Part shown: one piece after another, positions 236 to 9,741 of the stretch | Layout of the letters: each line of letters begins with the position of its first letter | Numbering within the stretch: the stretch's first letter is position 1 | NCBI GenBank assembly: GCA_965223415.1 | Contig: OZ245002.1 | Coordinates: forward strand, 2,528,001-2,592,000 | Source: Myxococcota bacterium | Lineage (GTDB): Bacteria; Myxococcota_A; UBA9160; UBA6930 | Reading direction: 5' to 3' | DNA length: 64,000 bases | Notes under the pieces: generated by a model | What the model was told of the DNA's origin: nothing | The model's database searches: none | Seen by the model: only the letters and a program-made list of their open reading frames with translations | Position numbers and translations under genes: made by a program

Positions 236-248
236 TCGCCGAGGCCCT

Positions 249-359
249 GCCCAACGGGTAGGCGGCCCGAAGCTCGCTGAGCCACCTGAGTTGGACCCAG
301 TGTACCACGCCAAGAGCGGAAGCAGCGGTTCCCCGGTCAGGTCCAACCCCTTGTTAGGC
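249..359 (-). other. integron attC site 1 (L' box deleted)
   Basis: Minus strand reads GCCTAAC-AAGGGGTTGGACCTGAC...CCGCCTACCC-GTTGGGC, directly after the stop of 366..860. The interior aligns with 6544-6646 but lacks the TCAGCTGC (L') segment. Confidence 0.8.
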
Positions 360-365
360 AGCTGC

Positions 366-860: not shown

Positions 861-878
861 CGGCTCGCGCAGCCGCCT

Positions 879-1268
879 TGTGTGTTCCGCCTAGCGCCAG
901 ATTCGGGATAGGGTAGGTGTTTCGATCGGGGAGACCGTAGCTGCCTGAAGCCAGGTGAGCCTGAGAGTTGGATGAATCCCCCGTCCTTCTCGCCATGCCT
1001 TGAAGTATGCGAGGCCCGAGAGCCCGGATCTACAAAGTCGGTAGACGAGGATTCAGGGTCGGGCGACCGAGCGAGATTCTACACCGAGGAGGGAAACGAG
1101 CGGGCCGGGAATGGGGGGCTGGCCCAGGCCTTGGTTCGTCGGCGCAGCGCCGCGCGTGTGCGTCGAGGTGAAGGGCATCTACCACCTCGAGCCGTGTCTG
1201 TGGCCGGACGACGCAGCTCGGATCGAGGTGATGGTGGCGAACCCGCGAGCCACGAAGGATCTTGGCTC
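879..1268 (+). mobile_element. degenerate IS110 remnant (left end, bridge-RNA region, eroded recombinase fragment), related to the element at 5304-6543
   Basis: Same junction GCCGC-CT-TGT as 5297-5306. Shares blocks GCTGCCTGAAGCCAG, GAGGCCCGAGAGCC, TCTACAA and CAGGGTCGGG. Peptide remnant VEVKGIYHLE...VMVANPRA resembles VLESTGVYGLD...VMVANPRA. Confidence 0.85.
930..1075 (+). ncRNA. orphan bridge-RNA-like sequence of the IS110 remnant
   Basis: Homologous to 5360-5495. Guide-position segments are GCTGCCT (940-946), GAGAGTTGG (963-971), GAAGTATG (1002-1009) and TACAA (1031-1035). Confidence 0.6.
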
Positions 1269-1270
1269 GG

Positions 1271-1291
1271 GTCAGCTGCAGCCGGTTAGGC
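1271..1291 (-). other. attC site 2, R''/L'' half only
   Basis: Minus strand GCCTAAC-CGGCTGCAGCTGAC overlaps the TAA stop of the DUF2442 gene. The rest is replaced by the IS110 remnant. Confidence 0.75.
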
Positions 1292-1558
1292 GGCGCCCCT
1301 CTGCTTGGGCGGCGCGGGTGCGCCGCGGAGGAGGCCTTCCGCACTGAGGTCTTCATCCACATCCGGCCAGTGAATTCCGTGGCCACCACCACAGAGCTCC
1401 CACTTCTCGCGTTGCTCACGGGTGGCGTGCAGGAGCCGAGGGAACCAAGCGAGCGGAACAGAAATGGTGCGACCATCAGCAAGCGTCGCGTGAAGCGAGT
1501 CGTCATCGATTTCGACATCGATGATTCGCTCGCCCGCTCTAGGTTCCGAAGTAACCAT
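1286..1558 (-). CDS. DUF2442 family protein (toxin-antitoxin pair with DUF4160)
   Basis: LADGRTISVPLAWFPRLLHAT...GIHWPDVDEDLSAEGLL is the typical DUF2442 signature. It overlaps the upstream DUF4160 gene. Confidence 0.9.
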   Translation of the reverse strand: MVTSEPRAGERIIDVEIDDDSLHATLADGRTISVPLAWFPRLLHATREQREKWELCGGGHGIHWPDVDEDLSAEGLLRGAPAPPKQRGAA

Positions 1559-3420: not shown

Positions 3421-3521
3421 GCCGCCTTGTACCTCTGATCCAGCCGGCCAAGGAACAACCCCAGGCTACCATGGCCGTTTGAAGGGTGCTTGGAGCCGTC
3501 AGCTGCAGCCGCTTGTTAGGC
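3421..3521 (-). other. attC site 3 (R' disrupted by an 11-bp IS110 left-end scar)
   Basis: Minus strand GCCTAAC-AAGCGGCTGCAGCTGAC at 3498-3521. At the far end, GCCGC-CT-TGTACCTCTGA (3421-3438) is identical to 5297-5314. Confidence 0.8.
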
Positions 3522-3528
3522 GCCGCGC

Positions 3529-4786
3529 GGTACGGTCCGGCCACATCCTTTACAGGAGTCCAGGGACATCGTTTACACCCGGGGGATGCCCTGGATGGAA
3601 ACGGATGCAAGGAAGCAGCGGCAGGCGTTCGTTCGCGACTACGAGAGCGGTCAGTGGTCGATGAGCGAGCTGTGTCGGCGGTATCGTGTCTCCCGGCCCA
3701 CAGGCTACAAGTGGCTCGGGCGCTTCGAGTCGGAGGGGGAGGCCGGCCTGGAGGAGAGGTCCCGTGCGCCGGCTCGCTGCCCGCACAGGACGCCAGCGAG
3801 CGTGGAGCGCAAGATCCTGGCCCTTCGCGCCGAGTACGGCTGGGGTGCGAAGAAGATCTTGCAGGTGCTCGAGCGCCGGTACCCGAAGATGCAGAGGCCC
3901 GCGCGAAGCACGGTGAACGCGATCCTCGATCGCCACGGCAAGCTGCGCAAGAACCGACGTCGGAAGAAGTGGTCGCATCCCGGCGCTGCGTCGCTGTCGA
4001 CCGACCACCCGAACCAGGTGTGGCCCGCGGACTTCAAGGGCCAATTCAAGATGCGCAACGGTCGCTACTGCTACCCGCTGACCGTGACCGACCACTGCAG
4101 CCGCAAGCTCCTGATGTGCCGCGGGCTGCACTCGATTCGCACCGAGGGCGTGAAGCCGCTGTTTCGGGAGCTCTTTCGCGAGGTCGGACTTCCCGAGGCG
4201 ATTCGCACCGACAACGGTGCCCCCTTCGCATCGACCGGGATCCACGGCCTGTGCGAACTCAACGTGTGGTGGATGAAGCTCGGCATCGTGCACCAGCGCA
4301 TCCGTCCTTCGAGCCCCCAACAGAACGGGCAGCACGAGAGGATGCACAAGGACCTCAAACGCGAGGCGACCCGCCCGCCTGGCGCGAACCTCAACGTCCA
4401 GCAGCGGATGCTCGAGGCCTTTCGTCGACGCTACAACGAGGAGCGGCCGCACGAAGCACTCGGTGGAGCGTTTCCCGAGGAGCGCTACGAGCCCTCGCCG
4501 CGGCCGTACCCCAGTCGCCTCTCGCCGCCGGAGTACCCTGCGCAGATGGAAGTGCGCCGCGTGAGCCGGGCCGGGACGTTTCGGCTGAAGGCGAAGCAGC
4601 CCTTCCTGAGCAACGCACTGGCCGATGAGTACATCGGACTTGAAGAGATCGGCGACGGCATCTGGAGCATCGTCTACTACGAGACGATCCTGGGCCGCAT
4701 CGACGAGCGCAGCAGGAAGATCACCGGAGTCTGAGAGGTGTAAACGATCTACCTGGACTTGTGTAAAGGATCAGCCGGACCGGTCA
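3529..4786 (+). mobile_element. IS481-family insertion sequence
   Basis: Imperfect IRs of about 50 bp: CGGTCCGG..ATCCTTTACA..AGTCCAGG..ATCGTTTACACC and its complement at about 4737-4786. No clear TSD. Confidence 0.85.
3586..4734 (+). CDS. IS481-family transposase (HTH + rve integrase core)
   Basis: MPWMETD..SMSELCRRYRVSRPTGYKW; W.ADFKG, LTVTDHCSR, IRTDNGAPF, PQQNGQHERMH and YNEERPHEAL motifs. Confidence 0.93.
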   Translation: MPWMETDARKQRQAFVRDYESGQWSMSELCRRYRVSRPTGYKWLGRFESEGEAGLEERSRAPARCPHRTPASVERKILALRAEYGWGAKKILQVLERRYPKMQRPARSTVNAILDRHGKLRKNRRRKKWSHPGAASLSTDHPNQVWPADFKGQFKMRNGRYCYPLTVTDHCSRKLLMCRGLHSIRTEGVKPLFRELFREVGLPEAIRTDNGAPFASTGIHGLCELNVWWMKLGIVHQRIRPSSPQQNGQHERMHKDLKREATRPPGANLNVQQRMLEAFRRRYNEERPHEALGGAFPEERYEPSPRPYPSRLSPPEYPAQMEVRRVSRAGTFRLKAKQPFLSNALADEYIGLEEIGDGIWSIVYYETILGRIDERSRKITGV

Positions 4787-4790
4787 GGCC

Positions 4791-5249
4791 CTAGAACCTG
4801 GAGCTGAGCCAGGTCGCATTCCTGGCCAACAGAAAACCCACGAGAACCCTTGCGAGAGGAGACACCAGGTACCCGATGAACGTCGTCGAACTCATCCTCT
4901 CAGGAGCTGACATGGCCATTGAAAATAGAACTACGAACGCAGAGAGAAGCGAAGCAGAGCCTGCAGCCATGAAGAAGATCCCGAGCAGAACGACGCCGAG
5001 GGAGAGCCACTGCGCCCCCGGGGCAACGCTCGGCGGGTTGTGCTCTGGCATGCTGAATGCGACGTAACGCGAGAGCACCAGGAGGACGACTCCTGGAATC
5101 CAGTTGCCAGCTAGCGTGGGCCAGGAGTCCAACAGCATCGACGAGAGGGGCCTCACAAGATCCTCGGACTGGCCCATGACCAAGTAGTAACTGGAAGCCT
5201 CGTGGGCCCATTCGGCGACACCGGACGCAAGAAAGAACAGGCCGAGCAA
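4791..5249 (-). CDS. integron cassette gene, hypothetical membrane protein (start uncertain; frame open to about 5285)
   Basis: Four hydrophobic segments, lower GC, and located between the attC4 R' site and attC3. Confidence 0.65.
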   Translation of the reverse strand: MLGLFFLASGVAEWAHEASSYYLVMGQSEDLVRPLSSMLLDSWPTLAGNWIPGVVLLVLSRYVAFSMPEHNPPSVAPGAQWLSLGVVLLGIFFMAAGSASLLSAFVVLFSMAMSAPERMSSTTFIGYLVSPLARVLVGFLLARNATWLSSRF

Positions 5250-5344
5250 CGCCGTCCCAGTCCGCGCAACTTCGGTCAGCTTGAACCCCCCTTCGCGCCG
5301 CCTTGTACCTCTGAGCAGGCTCTTCGGGCCTGAGTGAGACTCCG

Positions 5345-5500
5345 AGATGGGTTCCCGGGAAAGGCCGTCGCTGCCTGAAGCCAGAGAGCTTGTCCGTTAG
5401 ATGGGCCTCCCGCCCTCGTCACCCATGCCGTGGAGTATCCGAGGCCCGAGAGCCTGCGTCTACAAGGTCCGTAGGTGAATGTGCAGGGTCGGGAGACCCG
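5345..5500 (+). ncRNA. bridge RNA of IS110-A (boundaries approximate)
   Basis: Target loop AGGCC[GTCGCTGCCTG]AAGC-CAGAGA-GCTT[GTCCGTTAGATG]GGCCT. Donor loop has GGAGTATC (5432-5439) and TACAAG (5461-5466) around the AGGC-CCGAGA-GCCT hairpin. Confidence 0.85.
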
Positions 5501-5530
5501 GGTCCCAGCTTATCACGGGGAGGAGAGACC

Positions 5531-6526
5531 TTGAAGAAGTGTCATTACGTGGGCGTGGACGTCGGGGCGAAGGAGCTCGTCGTCGCCATCGACCGGAACG
5601 GAACTCGCGAGGGCGGGCTGGTCTTTGCGAACGATCCCAAGGGCCACCAGAGGCTGATTCGGTGGGCCACGAAGGGGAATGCGACGGCGCGCGTCGTCCT
5701 GGAATCGACCGGGGTGTACGGCCTCGACCTCGCGTTCGCGCTTCACCGTGCGAAGGCGTCCCAGGTGATGGTGGCGAACCCGCGGGCCATTGCCGCGTTC
5801 GCCAAGGCATCGCTTCAACGCTCCAAGACGGATGCGCTCGATGCGGAAACGATTCTCGAGTTCGGAATGCGCATGGAGTTTTCCGCCTGGACTCCGCCGG
5901 ACCCCCGAATTCTGGAGGTACGGGCCCTCTCCCGCCGCGTGGAGGCTCTGAGCAAGACCGTGACGCAGGAGAAGAACCGGCTCCATGCCAACGACCAGAG
6001 CGAGGAGCTCAGTGAGTTCGTGAAGCAAGACATCCGCGAACTGATCGAGCTCCTGGAGGGGCGAATCGATCGGCTGCGCAAGCAAGCGTTGAAGGTGATC
6101 GAGCAGAGCCCCGAGCTCGCCAGAGACTTCGGCCACATCACATCGATCAAGGGTATCGCCGACGCAGCCGGCATCCAGTTGCTCGCCGAGCTAGGCACCT
6201 TGCCCAAGGACATGACGACCCGGCAATGGGTCGCGCATGCGGGCCTCGACCCCCGACAGTTTCAATCGGGCACCTCTGTGCACAAGCCAGCTCGCATCAG
6301 CAAGACCGGCAACGCCCACCTTCGCCGCGCACTCTTTCTTCCTGCGATGGTCGCTGCACGCTGGGAACCGAACGTGAAGGCCTTCTACGAGAAGCTGCTC
6401 TCCAAGGGCAAAACCAAGATGCAAGCACTCGTCGCCGTCATGCGGAAGCTGCTCCACGCCATCTACGGCATGCTCCGCCACGACCAGGACTTCCTTGGCG
6501 AGAAATTCTTCGCCACGAAGGGTTGA
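5531..6526 (+). CDS. IS110-family DEDD recombinase/transposase
   Basis: TTG start after AGGAGAG. Motifs VGVDVGAK, VLESTGVY, KTDALDA, HAGLDPRQFQSGTS, SKTGNAHLRRALF and VAVMRKLL. Confidence 0.95.
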   Translation: MKKCHYVGVDVGAKELVVAIDRNGTREGGLVFANDPKGHQRLIRWATKGNATARVVLESTGVYGLDLAFALHRAKASQVMVANPRAIAAFAKASLQRSKTDALDAETILEFGMRMEFSAWTPPDPRILEVRALSRRVEALSKTVTQEKNRLHANDQSEELSEFVKQDIRELIELLEGRIDRLRKQALKVIEQSPELARDFGHITSIKGIADAAGIQLLAELGTLPKDMTTRQWVAHAGLDPRQFQSGTSVHKPARISKTGNAHLRRALFLPAMVAARWEPNVKAFYEKLLSKGKTKMQALVAVMRKLLHAIYGMLRHDQDFLGEKFFATKG

Positions 6527-6543
6527 CGACGAAGGGAGTATCT

Positions 6544-6646
6544 AACGGACAGGCGGCTCAGCTGCTGGGCAGGCCCCGAAGCTCACTGAGGCGCCTGGGT
6601 GGAACCCAAGAGTACCACGCCCCAGTTGGAACGCGCGGTTGCCCGG
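6544..6646 (-). other. attC site 4, central segment with L' box (between IS110-A and IS1111-B)
   Basis: Minus strand GCAGCTGAGCCGCCTGTCCGTT, followed by AG-GC once IS110-A is removed. The interior is homologous to attC1 (CCGAAGCTC.CTGAG...GTACCACGCC...GCGGTT). Confidence 0.85.
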
Positions 6647-6724
6647 AGGGTATAGGGAGGTCAGCTCCTTGGAGAACAGCCACCTTGGCTGTGTTCCAAC
6701 AAACACTCCCCAAGGAGACTGACC

Positions 6725-7774
6725 ATGACGACAGAGTACTTCGCTGGGATCGACTTGCATCGCACCGTGATCCAGATCTGCGTGCTGGATGCGCGGGGTG
6801 AGAAGATCGCCGAGGAGAGGATCCGCTCCGAGAGCCTTGAACAGGGCCTCGGGGTCGTGGAGCGGCTGAAGTTCTTCGGACCCCATTGCCGCGTAGCCGT
6901 CGAGGCGTTGGGCCTCAACCGGTGGTTCGTCAACGCCTGCCGAGAGGCGCAGCTCGACGTTCTGGTCTGTGATCCGCGCAAGCTCGACCTGAAGAAGCTC
7001 GGCAAGAAGACGGACCGGCGAGATGCAGCCGAGATTGCACGCCGGCTCTGGCTCGGTGATCTGGATCGGGTGGCAACGACCTACTACCCGAGCGACGAGG
7101 AGTACGGGAGGAGGAAGCTCCTTCGGGTCCGCCACCGCCTCGTCCAGATGCGCCAACAGGCCGTGAACCAGCTCCGGGGCTTCCTGAACGCCTACCGGAT
7201 TCCCGCTCCCACGAGCGCGCTCTATACCAAGCCGAGCCGGGAGAAGCTCCGCACCGTCACCCTGCCGACCCTGGAGATGCAGACCGCCTTCAAGGCCCTG
7301 CTCCAGGTGCTCGATAGCCTGCAGGGCCAGGTGCTGGCTCTCGATCGGGAGATCCGACGGATCGGGCGAGAGGATCCCGACGTCCAGGCCCTCGAGCAGG
7401 AGCTCCCGAGCATCGGGACGCAATCGGCTGCCACGCTGCTCGCCGAGATCGGCGACCCGCACCGATTCCGAGGCCCCCGTGCGGTCTCGGCCTTCGCCGG
7501 CTTCACCCCCAAGGTGAACCAGTCAGCCGACCACGCCCACCACGGCCGCATGACCCGCCAAGGCCAGGCCGAGCTCCGCTGGATCGTCAGCCAATGGGCG
7601 GTTCGCCTGATGAAGGACGACCCGTTGGTTCGTGCCTGGGCGAAGACGATGCGGACCCGCGTCCACAAGAACAAGGTCCGCATGGCCTTGGCTCGCAGAC
7701 TCCTCGTCAGCGTCTGGGTCACGCTCACCCGCGGCGAGGCCTTCGATCTCCGGAGGTGCCTTGGCATGGCGTAG
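6725..7774 (+). CDS. IS110/IS1111-family recombinase
   Basis: AGIDLH, VAVEA, KKTDRRDA, AFAGFTPKVNQSA and MALARRL motifs. Confidence 0.93.
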   Translation: MTTEYFAGIDLHRTVIQICVLDARGEKIAEERIRSESLEQGLGVVERLKFFGPHCRVAVEALGLNRWFVNACREAQLDVLVCDPRKLDLKKLGKKTDRRDAAEIARRLWLGDLDRVATTYYPSDEEYGRRKLLRVRHRLVQMRQQAVNQLRGFLNAYRIPAPTSALYTKPSREKLRTVTLPTLEMQTAFKALLQVLDSLQGQVLALDREIRRIGREDPDVQALEQELPSIGTQSAATLLAEIGDPHRFRGPRAVSAFAGFTPKVNQSADHAHHGRMTRQGQAELRWIVSQWAVRLMKDDPLVRAWAKTMRTRVHKNKVRMALARRLLVSVWVTLTRGEAFDLRRCLGMA

Positions 7775-7802
7775 CCCCGCTCCCCCAGGACCCCTTCTCG
7801 CT

Positions 7803-7968
7803 TGTGTTCCAACGAAGACGGTAGGCGGGCAGCTGACTGCGGCCCATGAGCCCTTGGCCCCGATTCACCACCGTCGCCCCGAACCCCTCATTGAGCCCAC
7901 GAGGCCGACAACGCGTTTGGACTGAACCCGAACCCGCAGGGACGCAAGCCGATTCCGTTGGAGGACAC
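7803..7968 (+). ncRNA. seek/bridge RNA of IS1111-B
   Basis: Closing stem GTGTTCCAACG / CGTTGGAGGACAC. Inner stem GACGGT/ACCGTC encloses GCAGCTGAC (7829-7837), the exact reverse complement of the right flank GTCAGCTGC (8022-8030). Confidence 0.7.
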
Positions 7969-8021
7969 CACCAAGACCCACACGTGCTTCGCGATCATTG
8001 GAGTTGACACTCCCTAAACGG

Positions 8022-8037
8022 GTCAGCTGCAGCCGCT
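8022..8037 (-). other. attC site 4, L'' segment (between IS1111-B and IS110-C)
   Basis: GTCAGCTGCAGCCGCT is identical to attC3 3498-3513, where it continues TGTTAGGC. Confidence 0.85.
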
Positions 8038-8064
8038 CCTATGATGCTAGGCATGGTTAGATGA

Positions 8065-8250
8065 AGCGGCCGGTGAGCAGAGGCACTGCCCACCGGCCTT
8101 TCTCAACCGGAGCGGAAGACCGGTAGCCGTCGGGTCCCTCGTGAGACCGTTAACCAGCTTGGGTCTCCGCTCCACAGCCGCAGCGAAGCTCGAACGATCG
8201 CCTGGGCCTCTTGCGAGAGCCCGTAACCAGGAGCCCGAGTTCGTTGCACC
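8065..8250 (+). ncRNA. bridge RNA of IS110-C
   Basis: 5' hairpin GGCCGGTG..CACCGGCC. Target loop closed by GGAGCGGA/TCCGCTCC holds GTAGCCG (8123-8129) and TAACCAGC (8151-8158). Donor loop holds AGGAG (8229-8233), complementary to the left end CT-CCT. Confidence 0.7.
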
Positions 8251-8262
8251 TTGGAGTCTACC

Positions 8263-8805
8263 ATGGGGATGAACGTCGGGATCGACGTCTCGAAACACTC
8301 GCTTGATTGGACCTCAGGAAGCAAGGGGAAGCTTCAGCACACCCGCAACGAGCCGCGGGCCATCGCCCACCTCCTGCGTCGGATGGCCGAGCTCGACCCC
8401 GAGCGCATCGTCGTCGAGTCGACCGGGGGCTACGAGCGCCCGGTGGTCCAGAAGCTCGCCGAGGCGGGACTCCCGGTCGTCGTCGTGAACCCGGTTCGCG
8501 TTCGGCGCTTCGCCGAAGGCCTGGGGCTGCTGGCGAAGACGGACGCGGCAGATGCGCAGGTGCTCGCACTCTACGGCGAGAAGGCCGGGCCGCCGATCCG
8601 GCCGATTCCGATGGGGAGAAGCCGTCTGCTGGCCGATCTCATCGCACGGCGCCGCCAGCTCGTCTCGATCCTGGTGGCCGAGAAGGGTCGGCGGGAAGCG
8701 GCGCCTCGAGCTGCGCAGGCCTCGATCACGAGGATTCTCCGTGCTCTCGAGCGCGAGGTCGACGGCATCGACCAGCGCATCCAGAAGGCGATCGAAGACG
8801 ACCTC
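8263..8805 (+). pseudogene. IS110 recombinase, N-terminal DEDD half only
   Basis: VGIDVSK, VVESTGGYE and AKTDAADA motifs. The frame runs into the IS21 end at 8806, and the C-terminal domain is not found after 11107. Confidence 0.88.
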
Positions 8806-8940
8806 TGTCGAGGGACGTCATCTCTTGCGCGCTAAGAGGACGGCTAGTTTTGCGCACCCCCCTGGGTTGATGTTCGGTTCTTCCTTCTTCTCTTCCGCTC
8901 TCCGAAGGAGAGCACGGCCGTCAGGCCGCCCTCTGGGGCC

Positions 8941-9741
8941 TCAACGCTGGGCGCTTTGCCCCGCGGCCTGCTCGAGCTCGCGGAGCCGGTAGCTCCGCCC
9001 CGAGATGTTGAGCACCTGGCTGTGGTGGAGGAGGCGATCGAGGATGGCGGTGGCCAGCACCTCGTCGCCCGCCAGCACCTCGGGCCAGTCGGCGATGCCC
9101 TTGTTCGTGGTGATCAGGATCGAGCCCCTCCCATAGCGGTAGGAGACGAGCCGGAAGAAGAGGCTCGCCTCCTGGCGCGTCATGGGCTCGAAGCCGACCT
9201 CGTCGATGACGAGGAGCGCCACGTTCATGTGCTTGCGCCGCCGCAGCCGTTGCGGGCTGATCTCGGCGTCGCGCTTGAGGGCCGCCAGCAGGTCCTCGAG
9301 GCGATGGAAGGCCACGGAGAAGCCGTTCTCCACGGCCCGCACCCCCAGGGCCACCGCCAGGTGGGTCTTGCCCACTCCCGGCGGACCCTGGATCAGCAGA
9401 CTCTCCTTGGCCCGGATCCACGCGCAGGTGCCCAGCGTCTCGATCCGGCTCCGCTCCACACTCGGCTGGAAGGCGAAGTCGAAGTTGCCGAGGGTCTGCC
9501 CCGTGGGAAGGCCCGAGAGACGGAGCGAGGTCTTCATCCTCCGCTCCTCGCGGTGCTGCAGCTCGGCCTCGAGCAGCAGGTCGAGGAAGCGGTGGGGCAC
9601 GAGGTCGTCCTTGGTCGCTCGGGCCAGCTCCTCGCCGATGTGCTCGGCCGCGTGATGGAGGCCGAGGCGCACGAGCCGCTCGCGGGTCGGGTCGAGATCC
9701 ACCTTGCCGCCCTTCTTGGGCACCGGGTTTCCCGCCGTCAT
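8941..9741 (-). CDS. istB: IS21 helper AAA+ ATPase
   Basis: FDFAFQP, GPPGVGKTHLA, LLVIDEVG, ITTNK and AILDRLLHH motifs. Confidence 0.95.
   Translation of the reverse strand: MTAGNPVPKKGGKVDLDPTRERLVRLGLHHAAEHIGEELARATKDDLVPHRFLDLLLEAELQHREERRMKTSLRLSGLPTGQTLGNFDFAFQPSVERSRIETLGTCAWIRAKESLLIQGPPGVGKTHLAVALGVRAVENGFSVAFHRLEDLLAALKRDAEISPQRLRRRKHMNVALLVIDEVGFEPMTRQEASLFFRLVSYRYGRGSILITTNKGIADWPEVLAGDEVLATAILDRLLHHSQVLNISGRSYRLRELEQAAGQSAQR

Follow-up and report, generated by a model that had tools for sequence, protein, structure and literature searches.

The 64,000-nt stretch of DNA analysed here (positions 2,528,001 to 2,592,000 of contig OZ245002.1 of a Myxococcota bacterium; hereafter called the window) contains an insertion sequence of 1238 bp, which we name ISa, and which is very probably an IS110 element that is guided by a bridge RNA to the R' ends of integron attC sites. 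The leader that precedes its recombinase gene holds two strings that match the DNA on either side of the insertion (the target guides) and two strings that match the ends of the element itself (the donor guides). The original prediction, made from the letters of this stretch, had described these strings as a complete four-guide bridge RNA. This description is now sustained by the matches, which are all in place, by their absence as an ordered set from 20,000 shuffles of the leader, by the covariation of the predicted fold, and by the guides of related elements, which change together with the flanks and ends of these elements.

The element ISa and its guides

The ends of ISa can be regarded as fixed, because a DNA search of the genome (closed, 5.83 Mb, 71% G+C) revealed six copies that share the same 1238-bp body in differing flanks; the body is intact in all six (BLAST identity 99-100%), and their flanks are all different. 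Both junctions of every copy carry a CT core, which in the window is found at 5302-5303 and 6542-6543. In four of the six copies the junctions read GCCGCCT on the left and CTAACGG on the right, while the two remaining copies are flanked by GGCTCACCT and CTAACGGGA, and by GCTGCTCT and CTAAGGGG, respectively.

The recombinase of ISa matches the Pfam domains PF01548 (E 3.8e-26) and PF02371 (E 1.5e-20) and is 36% identical to an annotated IS621-family protein. The residues aligned to D11, E60, D102, D105 and S241 of IS621, the roles of which are described in the excerpted part of PMC11208158, are D, E, D, D and S. The claim that the element is intact stands, given an open reading frame (ORF) with both IS110 domains and all five catalytic positions, and given ends that are defined by six copies. 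The gene leaves 227 nt of non-coding DNA on its 5' side (5304-5530) and 15 nt on its 3' side (6527-6541), and a simple exact-word comparison of the two 60-nt ends revealed no inverted repeat that reaches 7 nt. As far as its sequence tells, ISa is an intact and recently active insertion sequence, the layout of which is of the IS110 type and not of the IS1111 type (both layouts as given in the excerpted part of PMC11187229).

All four guide strings, read directly from the window and reprinted by a script, stand at the coordinates that had been claimed for them. The left target guide (LTG) GCTGCCT (5370-5376) differs from the left flank GCCGCCT (5297-5303) at one position, where the U of the guide would face a G of the bottom strand in a wobble pair. 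The right target guide (RTG) GTCCGTTAG (5392-5400) is the exact reverse complement of CTAACGGAC (6542-6550). The left donor guide (LDG) GGAGTATC (5432-5439) equals the right end of the element together with the first base of the core (6535-6542), and the right donor guide (RDG) TACAAG (5461-5466) is the reverse complement of CTTGTA (5302-5307). Each guide includes its share of the core, with the LTG ending in CU, the RTG in AG, the LDG in C and the RDG in AG. The agreement expected by chance was estimated from 20,000 dinucleotide-preserving shuffles of the region 5325-5530. The 9-mer of the RTG occurred in 37 of these shuffles, the 8-mer of the LDG in 143, and the 6-mer of the RDG in 158; the four matches together, in the correct order, occurred in none.

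When the guides are constrained to remain unpaired, two internal loops appear in the fold of the leader. In the target-binding loop, GCUGCCU and GUCCGUUAG lie on opposite sides around the hairpin AAGC/GCUU, and in the donor-binding loop GGAGUAUC and UACAAG lie on opposite sides around AGGC/GCCU. The dinucleotide AU that follows the RTG (5401-5402) matches the AT that closes the right end of ISa, and the dinucleotide GU that follows the RDG (5467-5468) can pair with the GC that precedes the target core. By analogy, we infer that these two dinucleotides correspond to the "handshake" positions of IS621, as far as the published excerpts describe them.

Relatives of ISa were collected by a search of 401 genomes from the same phylum, 18 of which, this genome counted, contain a match at E <=1e-40; a contig scan with a single protein gave three loci, and the wider set stems from the genome search. 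Two contigs of metagenome-assembled genomes encode recombinases with 82-83% identity to that of ISa and carry identical guides. The fold was assessed for six helices on an alignment of 15 leaders, in which 92.6% of 417 cells pair, as opposed to 21-51% after a shift of the partners by 1-3 columns. Compensatory changes affecting both sides were found in 10 of the 28 pairs, and the covariation score was reached by none of 500 shuffles. The eight pairs of the outer stem are uninformative, because they are invariant across the relatives. It is therefore the covariation in the 15 relatives that supports the two-loop fold, and the leader of ISa is predicted to fold into two guide-carrying internal loops.

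The guides of the relatives follow the DNA with which they are associated. For instance, the elements L031 and L032 have the LTG TAGGGGCT next to the left flank TAGGGGCT, the LDG TGAGCATC together with the right end TGAGCATC, and the RDG CUGCAAG together with the left end CTTGCA. L029 combines the LDG GGAGGATC with the right end GAGGATC, L026 the LTG GCCGCAT with the left flank GCCGCAT, and L030 an RTG that gives CTCCGCT with the right flank CTCCGCT; the RTG of L040 gives CTTCGGG, which by eye is also the sequence of the flank. Contiguous matches, counted from the core, were compared for ten elements, with three unparsed elements and two with a short right flank excluded. The mean length of the match between cognate partners exceeded that between non-cognate ones for the left target (4.5 vs 2.4), the right target (5.7 vs 3.4) and the right end (7.8 vs 4.6).

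Some of the relatives exhibit peculiarities of their own. In L026 (genome G273) the RTG and the two bases that follow it read ATCTAACGG, which would fit an AT core located two bases from the CT of ISa; alternatively, this element may have landed beside the scar of an earlier copy. The distant relatives L038 (G354) and L036 (G117), with 35-40% protein identity, have two tandem modules that resemble the target-binding loop ahead of the donor-binding loop, and in L038 the first of these modules fits the right flank CTCCGTG better than does the second one.

The attC target

The genome encodes an integron integrase (IntI) at genome positions 2062393-2063328, with a score of 449.7 bits, where the cut-off is 265, a value that was passed in none of 14 control genomes. 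The sequence GTTGGGC, which is likely to be the attI site, lies 330 nt upstream of intI and is followed by a cassette ORF of 241 amino acids and then by the first attC site of the array, attC1 (130 nt: GCCCAAC-AA-GGCGCTGCAGCTGAC ... GCAGCTGAGCGCC-AGGTCC-GTTAGCC, with one off-consensus base). Every match to the integrase model in the genome lies outside the 64-kb window, so that the array of the window has no intI within these 64 kb. Iterated nhmmer searches recovered eight homologous attC sites in the genome, three each next to intI and within the window, and the remaining two near 2.77 Mb. An intact attC site of 126 nt (genome positions 2773684-2773809; GCCTAAC ... GTTAGGC) agrees with the consensus in both its R'' and its R' box. 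Three sites were folded as DNA, which yielded energies of -20 to -39 kcal/mol and structures in which R'' pairs with R', the spacers are unequal, the L boxes pair, and the arm GTCAGCTGCAGCCGC contains a bulge.

The plus strand of the window corresponds to the bottom strand of the attC sites, and the minus strand encodes the cassette ORFs. The 14-bp target of ISa, GCCGC-CT-AACGGAC, reads GTCC-GTTAG/GC-GGC on the cassette strand (attC target string GTCCGTTAGGCGGC; the slash marks the point of insertion). It is composed of the spacer GTCC, the R' box GTTAGGC and the bases GGC of the next cassette, and therefore it spans a cassette boundary. Taken with intI, attI, the cassette, attC1 and the eight attC hairpins, this confirms what had been proposed, namely that the target is the integron crossover box GTTAGGC within GTCC-GTTAGGC-GGC of the minus strand, and we conclude that the predicted target of ISa is a real attC R' end.

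Three of the six ISa copies sit in attC R' ends: the one in the window (L001), one at 2.778 Mb (L002), and one in attC1, 3 kb from intI (L004). The copies at attC, as well as a footprint of ISa at attC, always have the same orientation relative to this site. The 12-mer GCCGCCTAACGG is found uninterrupted only twice in the 5.83 Mb of the genome, and both of these occurrences are empty attC R' ends. One attC site of the window (246-362) does not offer the ISa target, because its R' box is GTTGGGC. At two other sites, 872-1294 and 3421-3520, deletions have evidently removed elements together with part of attC and have thus scarred the array. In other genomes, relatives with 55-83% protein identity retain ...GUUAG in the RTG, and among the seven that have a readable right flank, this flank folds as an attC hairpin (56-175 nt) in five; one relative (L027) is located in an array with a second attC site of the same type.

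Directly beside the copy L004, within the R' box of attC1, lies a DDE transposon of 1.5 kb (DDE_Tnp_1_4; 2064547-2066070 of this genome, G000, or 4547-6070 of locus L019), which has the inverted ends CCCTGATCCGGCATTG and a TTAG duplication. The junctions of L004 fit either order of insertion of the two elements; if ISa was inserted first, its target would match at 14 of the 14 positions.

We propose the following course of events for the transposition of ISa. The element would excise as a circle, and its joined ends, GGAGTAT-CT-TGTAC (circle junction GGAGTATCTTGTAC), would form the donor site. The same junction probably creates a promoter, composed of TTGACG and TACCTC separated by 17 nt, which would drive the expression of the 5' leader. 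The donor-binding loop (GGAGUAUC and UACAAG) would then pair with the joined ends and the target-binding loop (GCUGCCU and GUCCGUUAG) with GCCGC-CT-AACGGAC, and the DEDD/Ser recombinase would exchange strands at the CT core. Finally, ISa would be carried along as the leading part of the downstream cassette, leaving the attC site undestroyed. As to the elements of the putative promoter, a TTG[AGC]C hexamer is found in 17 of 19 elements (15 with TTGAC, one with TTGGC and one with TTGCC). In all but one of these 17 it stands 13 nt ahead of the core, and the counterpart of TACCTC in the relatives is TATATC or TATCTA.

The consequences of the insertion for the attC site deserve particular attention. 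ISa separates GTTAG from GC, is oriented antisense to the cassettes and stands two bases from the IntI crossover. IntI exchanges strands at G/TT. With the crossover at this point, the body of attC and the crossover point stay together, and ISa comes to head the downstream cassette. The original prediction stated that the insertion splits the GTTRRRY site used by IntI. It was right about the position, between GTTAG and GC; however, GTT stays on attC and the junction GTTAGAT re-forms the consensus, with five of the seven R-box pairs kept. Since this junction still fits GTTRRRY, the candidate role of a natural "attC knockout" may be wrong. An insertion two bases from the crossover may either block the excision of cassettes or turn ISa into cassette cargo, which makes this case relevant to integron biology.

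Alternative explanations and relation to known systems

Several observations weigh against the interpretation of ISa as an RNA-guided attC specialist. By itself, the LTG match is weak, because 7,882 of the 20,000 shuffles (39%) contain this 7-mer with at most one mismatch. The unconstrained minimum-free-energy fold of the leader is not better than those of shuffled sequences (z = -0.91) and lacks the two loops, and a scan of the region 4500-9500 against Rfam at E values up to 1 returned no family, so that membership in a curated RNA family cannot be claimed. Moreover, the loop structure was partly derived from the same sequences that were later counted on for its support. The covariation between the RDG and the left end is weak, with a mean match of 5.0 for cognate and 4.35 for non-cognate pairs. 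The contigs of four sequencing runs contained neither the circle junction nor the joint of an empty site; those of the runs that are labelled as other organisms provide no independent support, because their flanks are identical to the ones in this genome. When the 20 kb next to intI were scanned naively for RYYYAAC...GTTRRRY pairs with a spacing of 45-160 nt, no such pair was detected; the attC sites of that region either read GTTAGCC or have been split by insertion sequences. Three copies of ISa (L003, L005 and L006) lie outside the attC homologues, in sites that by manual count match about 12, 9 and fewer of the 14 target positions; therefore, either the specificity is loose or other factors count. 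Finally, the bridge RNA, its binding by the recombinase and the guided insertion are all predicted here from the DNA sequence.

The three copies outside attC leave some room for the view that the protein reads the folded attC hairpin, or structure and sequence jointly, with the complementarity of the RNA loops being secondary. It is established that attC sites act as folded single strands, a 2026 preprint, as far as its excerpt goes, reports a "sequence-structure dual-match" for an IS110 element, and the existence of the three non-attC copies means that the 14-mer is not strictly required. However, these three copies have no attC hairpin at their sites and nonetheless retain the core together with some of each half-site, and the guides co-vary with the flanks across relatives that have quite different targets. 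Thus, we regard a primary role of the hairpin as improbable.

We find it far harder to believe that ISa is aimed at the end of ISb, another IS110-family element that is its neighbour in the window, in the way in which IS4321 and IS5075 target the ends of transposons, and that the likeness to attC is incidental. This possibility had to be considered, since the genome has four perfect sites, two of them occupied and two empty, each of which adjoins a copy of ISb or ISb-like sequence, and since the ISb copies at first seemed to start at CTAACGGAC. However, alignment with an uninterrupted attC site places the true start of ISb about 120 nt further on, after GGTCAG-CT. The empty site at genome positions 2773684-2773809 is a complete attC without ISb, there is no ISb at the copy in attC1 beside intI, and the relatives in other genomes occupy attC hairpins without ISb. 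Least credible of all is the explanation that the guide matches arose by chance and that ISa is an ordinary IS110 copy without RNA guidance. The frequency of the LTG 7-mer among the shuffles and the lack of an Rfam match for the leader would be in keeping with it, but the simultaneous occurrence of all four matches in none of the shuffles, the covariation observed both in the structure and in the guides, and the RNA-guided mechanism reported for the family in the excerpted parts of PMC11208160, PMC11208158 and PMC11187229 speak strongly against it.

Considered as a bridge-RNA-guided element, ISa resembles IS621 in its DEDD/Ser recombinase, the five catalytic positions, the long 5' non-coding end and the CT core. 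IS621 reportedly targets repetitive extragenic palindromes, whereas the target of ISa is the R' box of integron attC sites. In the excerpted descriptions of the IS621 bridge RNA (Durrant et al. 2024, PMC11208160; Hiraizumi et al. 2024, PMC11208158), the target-binding loop consists of a stem, the LTG, a stem-loop and the RTG, and the donor-binding loop is built likewise; the candidate RNA of ISa has the same two-loop form, the same order of guides (LTG, RTG, LDG, RDG), an LDG of 8 nt, and AU after the RTG. On the other hand, and according to the same excerpts, the RTG is 9 nt long in ISa and 4 nt in IS621 (longer RTGs in some orthologues are noted in the IS621 literature), the LTG of ISa, at 7-8 nt, is shorter than that of IS621, and the donor-binding loop of ISa is enclosed by an invariant outer stem, CCCGCCCU/AGGGUCGGG. 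The likeness of the donors suggested in the original prediction, GGAGTAT-CT-TGTAC in ISa and ACAGTAT-CT-TGTAT in IS621, was verified on an annotated IS621-family copy from an Escherichia coli plasmid, in which CTTGTAT is found 193 nt before the coding sequence and ACAGTATCT 99 nt after it. The arrangement of TTGACG and TACCTC in ISa also matches the junction promoter mentioned for IS621 in the excerpted part of PMC11208160.

The targeting of attC by ISa is less new than it may seem, because the elements of the IS1111-attC group are already known to target attC. This group (ISKpn4, ISPst6, ISPa25, ISPa21) is said to have been described by Tetu and Holmes in 2008 and by Post and Hall in 2009. 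Its members and ISa alike belong to the IS110 superfamily, insert at one end of attC in a site- and orientation-specific manner, take a guide RNA (in ISa, a predicted one) from their own non-coding region, build up in chromosomal cassette arrays, and leave footprints. According to the excerpted part of Siddiquee et al. 2024 (PMC11187229), the guide of the IS1111-attC elements, called seekRNA, was shown to be encoded 3' of the recombinase gene, and these elements have subterminal inverted repeats, whereas in ISa the predicted guide lies in the 5' leader, 15 nt follow the gene, and there is no inverted repeat of at least 7 nt. ISa therefore does not share the layout of this group and cannot be counted as its member. 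The group IIC-attC introns (as far as the excerpt of PMC3001079 describes them) are also RNA-guided attC specialists; they differ in being retroelements with a reverse transcriptase, and they have neither a DEDD recombinase nor a bridge RNA. Among the titles and abstracts listed for attC combined with bridge RNA or IS110, none describes an IS110-type 5' bridge RNA aimed at attC.

ISa joins two known things in one element, the bridge-RNA elements and the attC-targeting insertion sequences. Its existence suggests that the targeting of attC emerged both in the IS110-type branch, with its 5' bridge RNA, and in the IS1111-attC branch, with its 3' seekRNA. ISa also offers a clean natural case, in which the halves of the target, the halves of the donor, the core and the candidate handshake bases can all be read against known DNA, and in which one closed genome holds six copies, unoccupied perfect sites and off-target sites. 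It is tempting to think that tools to mark or load cassette arrays could be developed from a natural guide against the conserved R' box, although this is an idea rather than a result.

Other elements on the same attC and in the window

The attC site occupied by ISa bears two further IS110-family elements, ISb and ISc, which are listed in Table 1 together with the other features of the window.

Table 1. Positions of ISa, its predicted RNA loops, the attC sites and the neighbouring elements, numbered from the first letter of the window
Feature	Position	Strand	Remarks
attC of the array, unoccupied	246..362	-	R' box GTTGGGC; homologue search and fold
Decayed ISa-like element	872..1294	+	GCCGCCT as left flank; 76% identity in the bridge-RNA region (932-1068); abuts the attC end GGGTCAGCTGCAGCC-GGTTAGGCGGC
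ISa footprint	3421..3520	+	GCCGCCT and first 11 nt of the left end (3428-3438), joined to a different attC of which the distal two thirds remain
Cassette ORF	4791..5249	-	152 amino acids, no Pfam family; follows the ISa-occupied attC on the cassette strand
Left target GCCGC and core CT	5297..5303	+	reads AG-GCGGC on the minus (cassette) strand, where the R' box ends and the next cassette begins; flanks four of six copies
ISa, IS110-type insertion sequence	5304..6541	+	1238 bp between two CT cores; six genome copies
Predicted target-binding loop	5363..5407	+	stem 5363-5366/5404-5407; LTG 5370-5376; distal hairpin 5378-5381/5388-5391; RTG 5392-5400; AU 5401-5402
Predicted donor-binding loop and enclosing stems	5409..5493	+	outer stem 5409-5416/5485-5493; stems 5419-5428/5471-5478; LDG 5432-5439; distal hairpin 5442-5445/5452-5455; RDG 5461-5466; GU 5467-5468
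Recombinase gene	5531..6526	+	331 amino acids; TTG start behind GGAGGAG; DEDD_Tnp_IS110 and Transposase_20 domains
TTGACG, -35-like hexamer	6523..6528	+	13 nt before the core; 17 nt from the left-end TACCTC in the circle junction; putative promoter role
Right end GGAGTAT, core CT (6542-6543), right target AACGGAC	6535..6550	+	junction ATCTAAC, GTTAGAT on the cassette strand
attC body, spacer GGACA and L box GGCGGCTCAGCTGC to GGTCAG	6544..6664	-	nhmmer E 7e-24; alignment to intact attC
ISb, second IS110-family element	6667..8026	+	recombinase 6725-7774; 58 nt 5' and 252 nt 3' non-coding; insertion site GGTCAG-CT-GCAGCC, within the L box of the attC that ISa occupies
Last piece of the attC L box, GCAGCCGCT	8029..8037	+	
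ISc, third IS110-family element	8038..8835		single-copy, truncated; begins exactly where attC should continue GGTTAGGCGGC, as in other copies

No protein of the plasmid collection exceeds 32% identity to the one encoded by ISb, and the 252-nt 3' non-coding part of the element resembles the layout of the IS1111-attC group. Within this part, GCAGCTGAC (7829-7837) is a candidate seekRNA guide, since it is the reverse complement of GTCAGCTGC, the site in its uninterrupted form. Further copies or parts of ISb are found at 2.071-2.077 Mb and 2.774-2.778 Mb of the genome. A delimitation of ISb as 6542-8037, with the inverted ends GCCGCCTAAC.../...GTTAGGCGGC and with ISa aimed at the ISb junction, was dropped after the alignment to the uninterrupted attC; the empty site that such an element would have had, GCCGCCTGGTTAGG, is absent from the genome. 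In the 5' leader of ISc, CAGCCGC (8175-8181) matches the left flank GCAGCCGC, and TAACCAG (8224-8230) is the reverse complement of CTGGTTA, the expected right flank. The guide matches of ISa, ISb and ISc therefore suggest that one attC site bears three differently programmed, putatively RNA-guided elements.

It is tantalizing to extend this picture to a guild of IS110-family elements that may parasitise the attC hairpin, with ISa at the R' box, ISb in the L box and ISc at the L''/R'' junction, and with IntI also able to move ISa and the downstream cassette as one compound cassette, GTT having been kept and GTTAGAT re-formed. We consider this extended scenario unlikely. If true, its compound-cassette part would provide a bridge-RNA element with a second route of spread, driven by the integrase.

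ISc is itself cut by an element of about 2.2 kb or more, which starts at about 8805 and reaches at least to 11000. About 18 near-identical full-length copies of this element, as well as fragments, are present in the genome, and its ORFs look IS21-like, with a motif of the IstB-type ATPase in the translation. In addition, a gene for an IS481-type transposase (rve, LZ_Tnp_IS481), which belongs to yet another, unrelated element, is located at 3586-4734, between two of the attC sites of the window.

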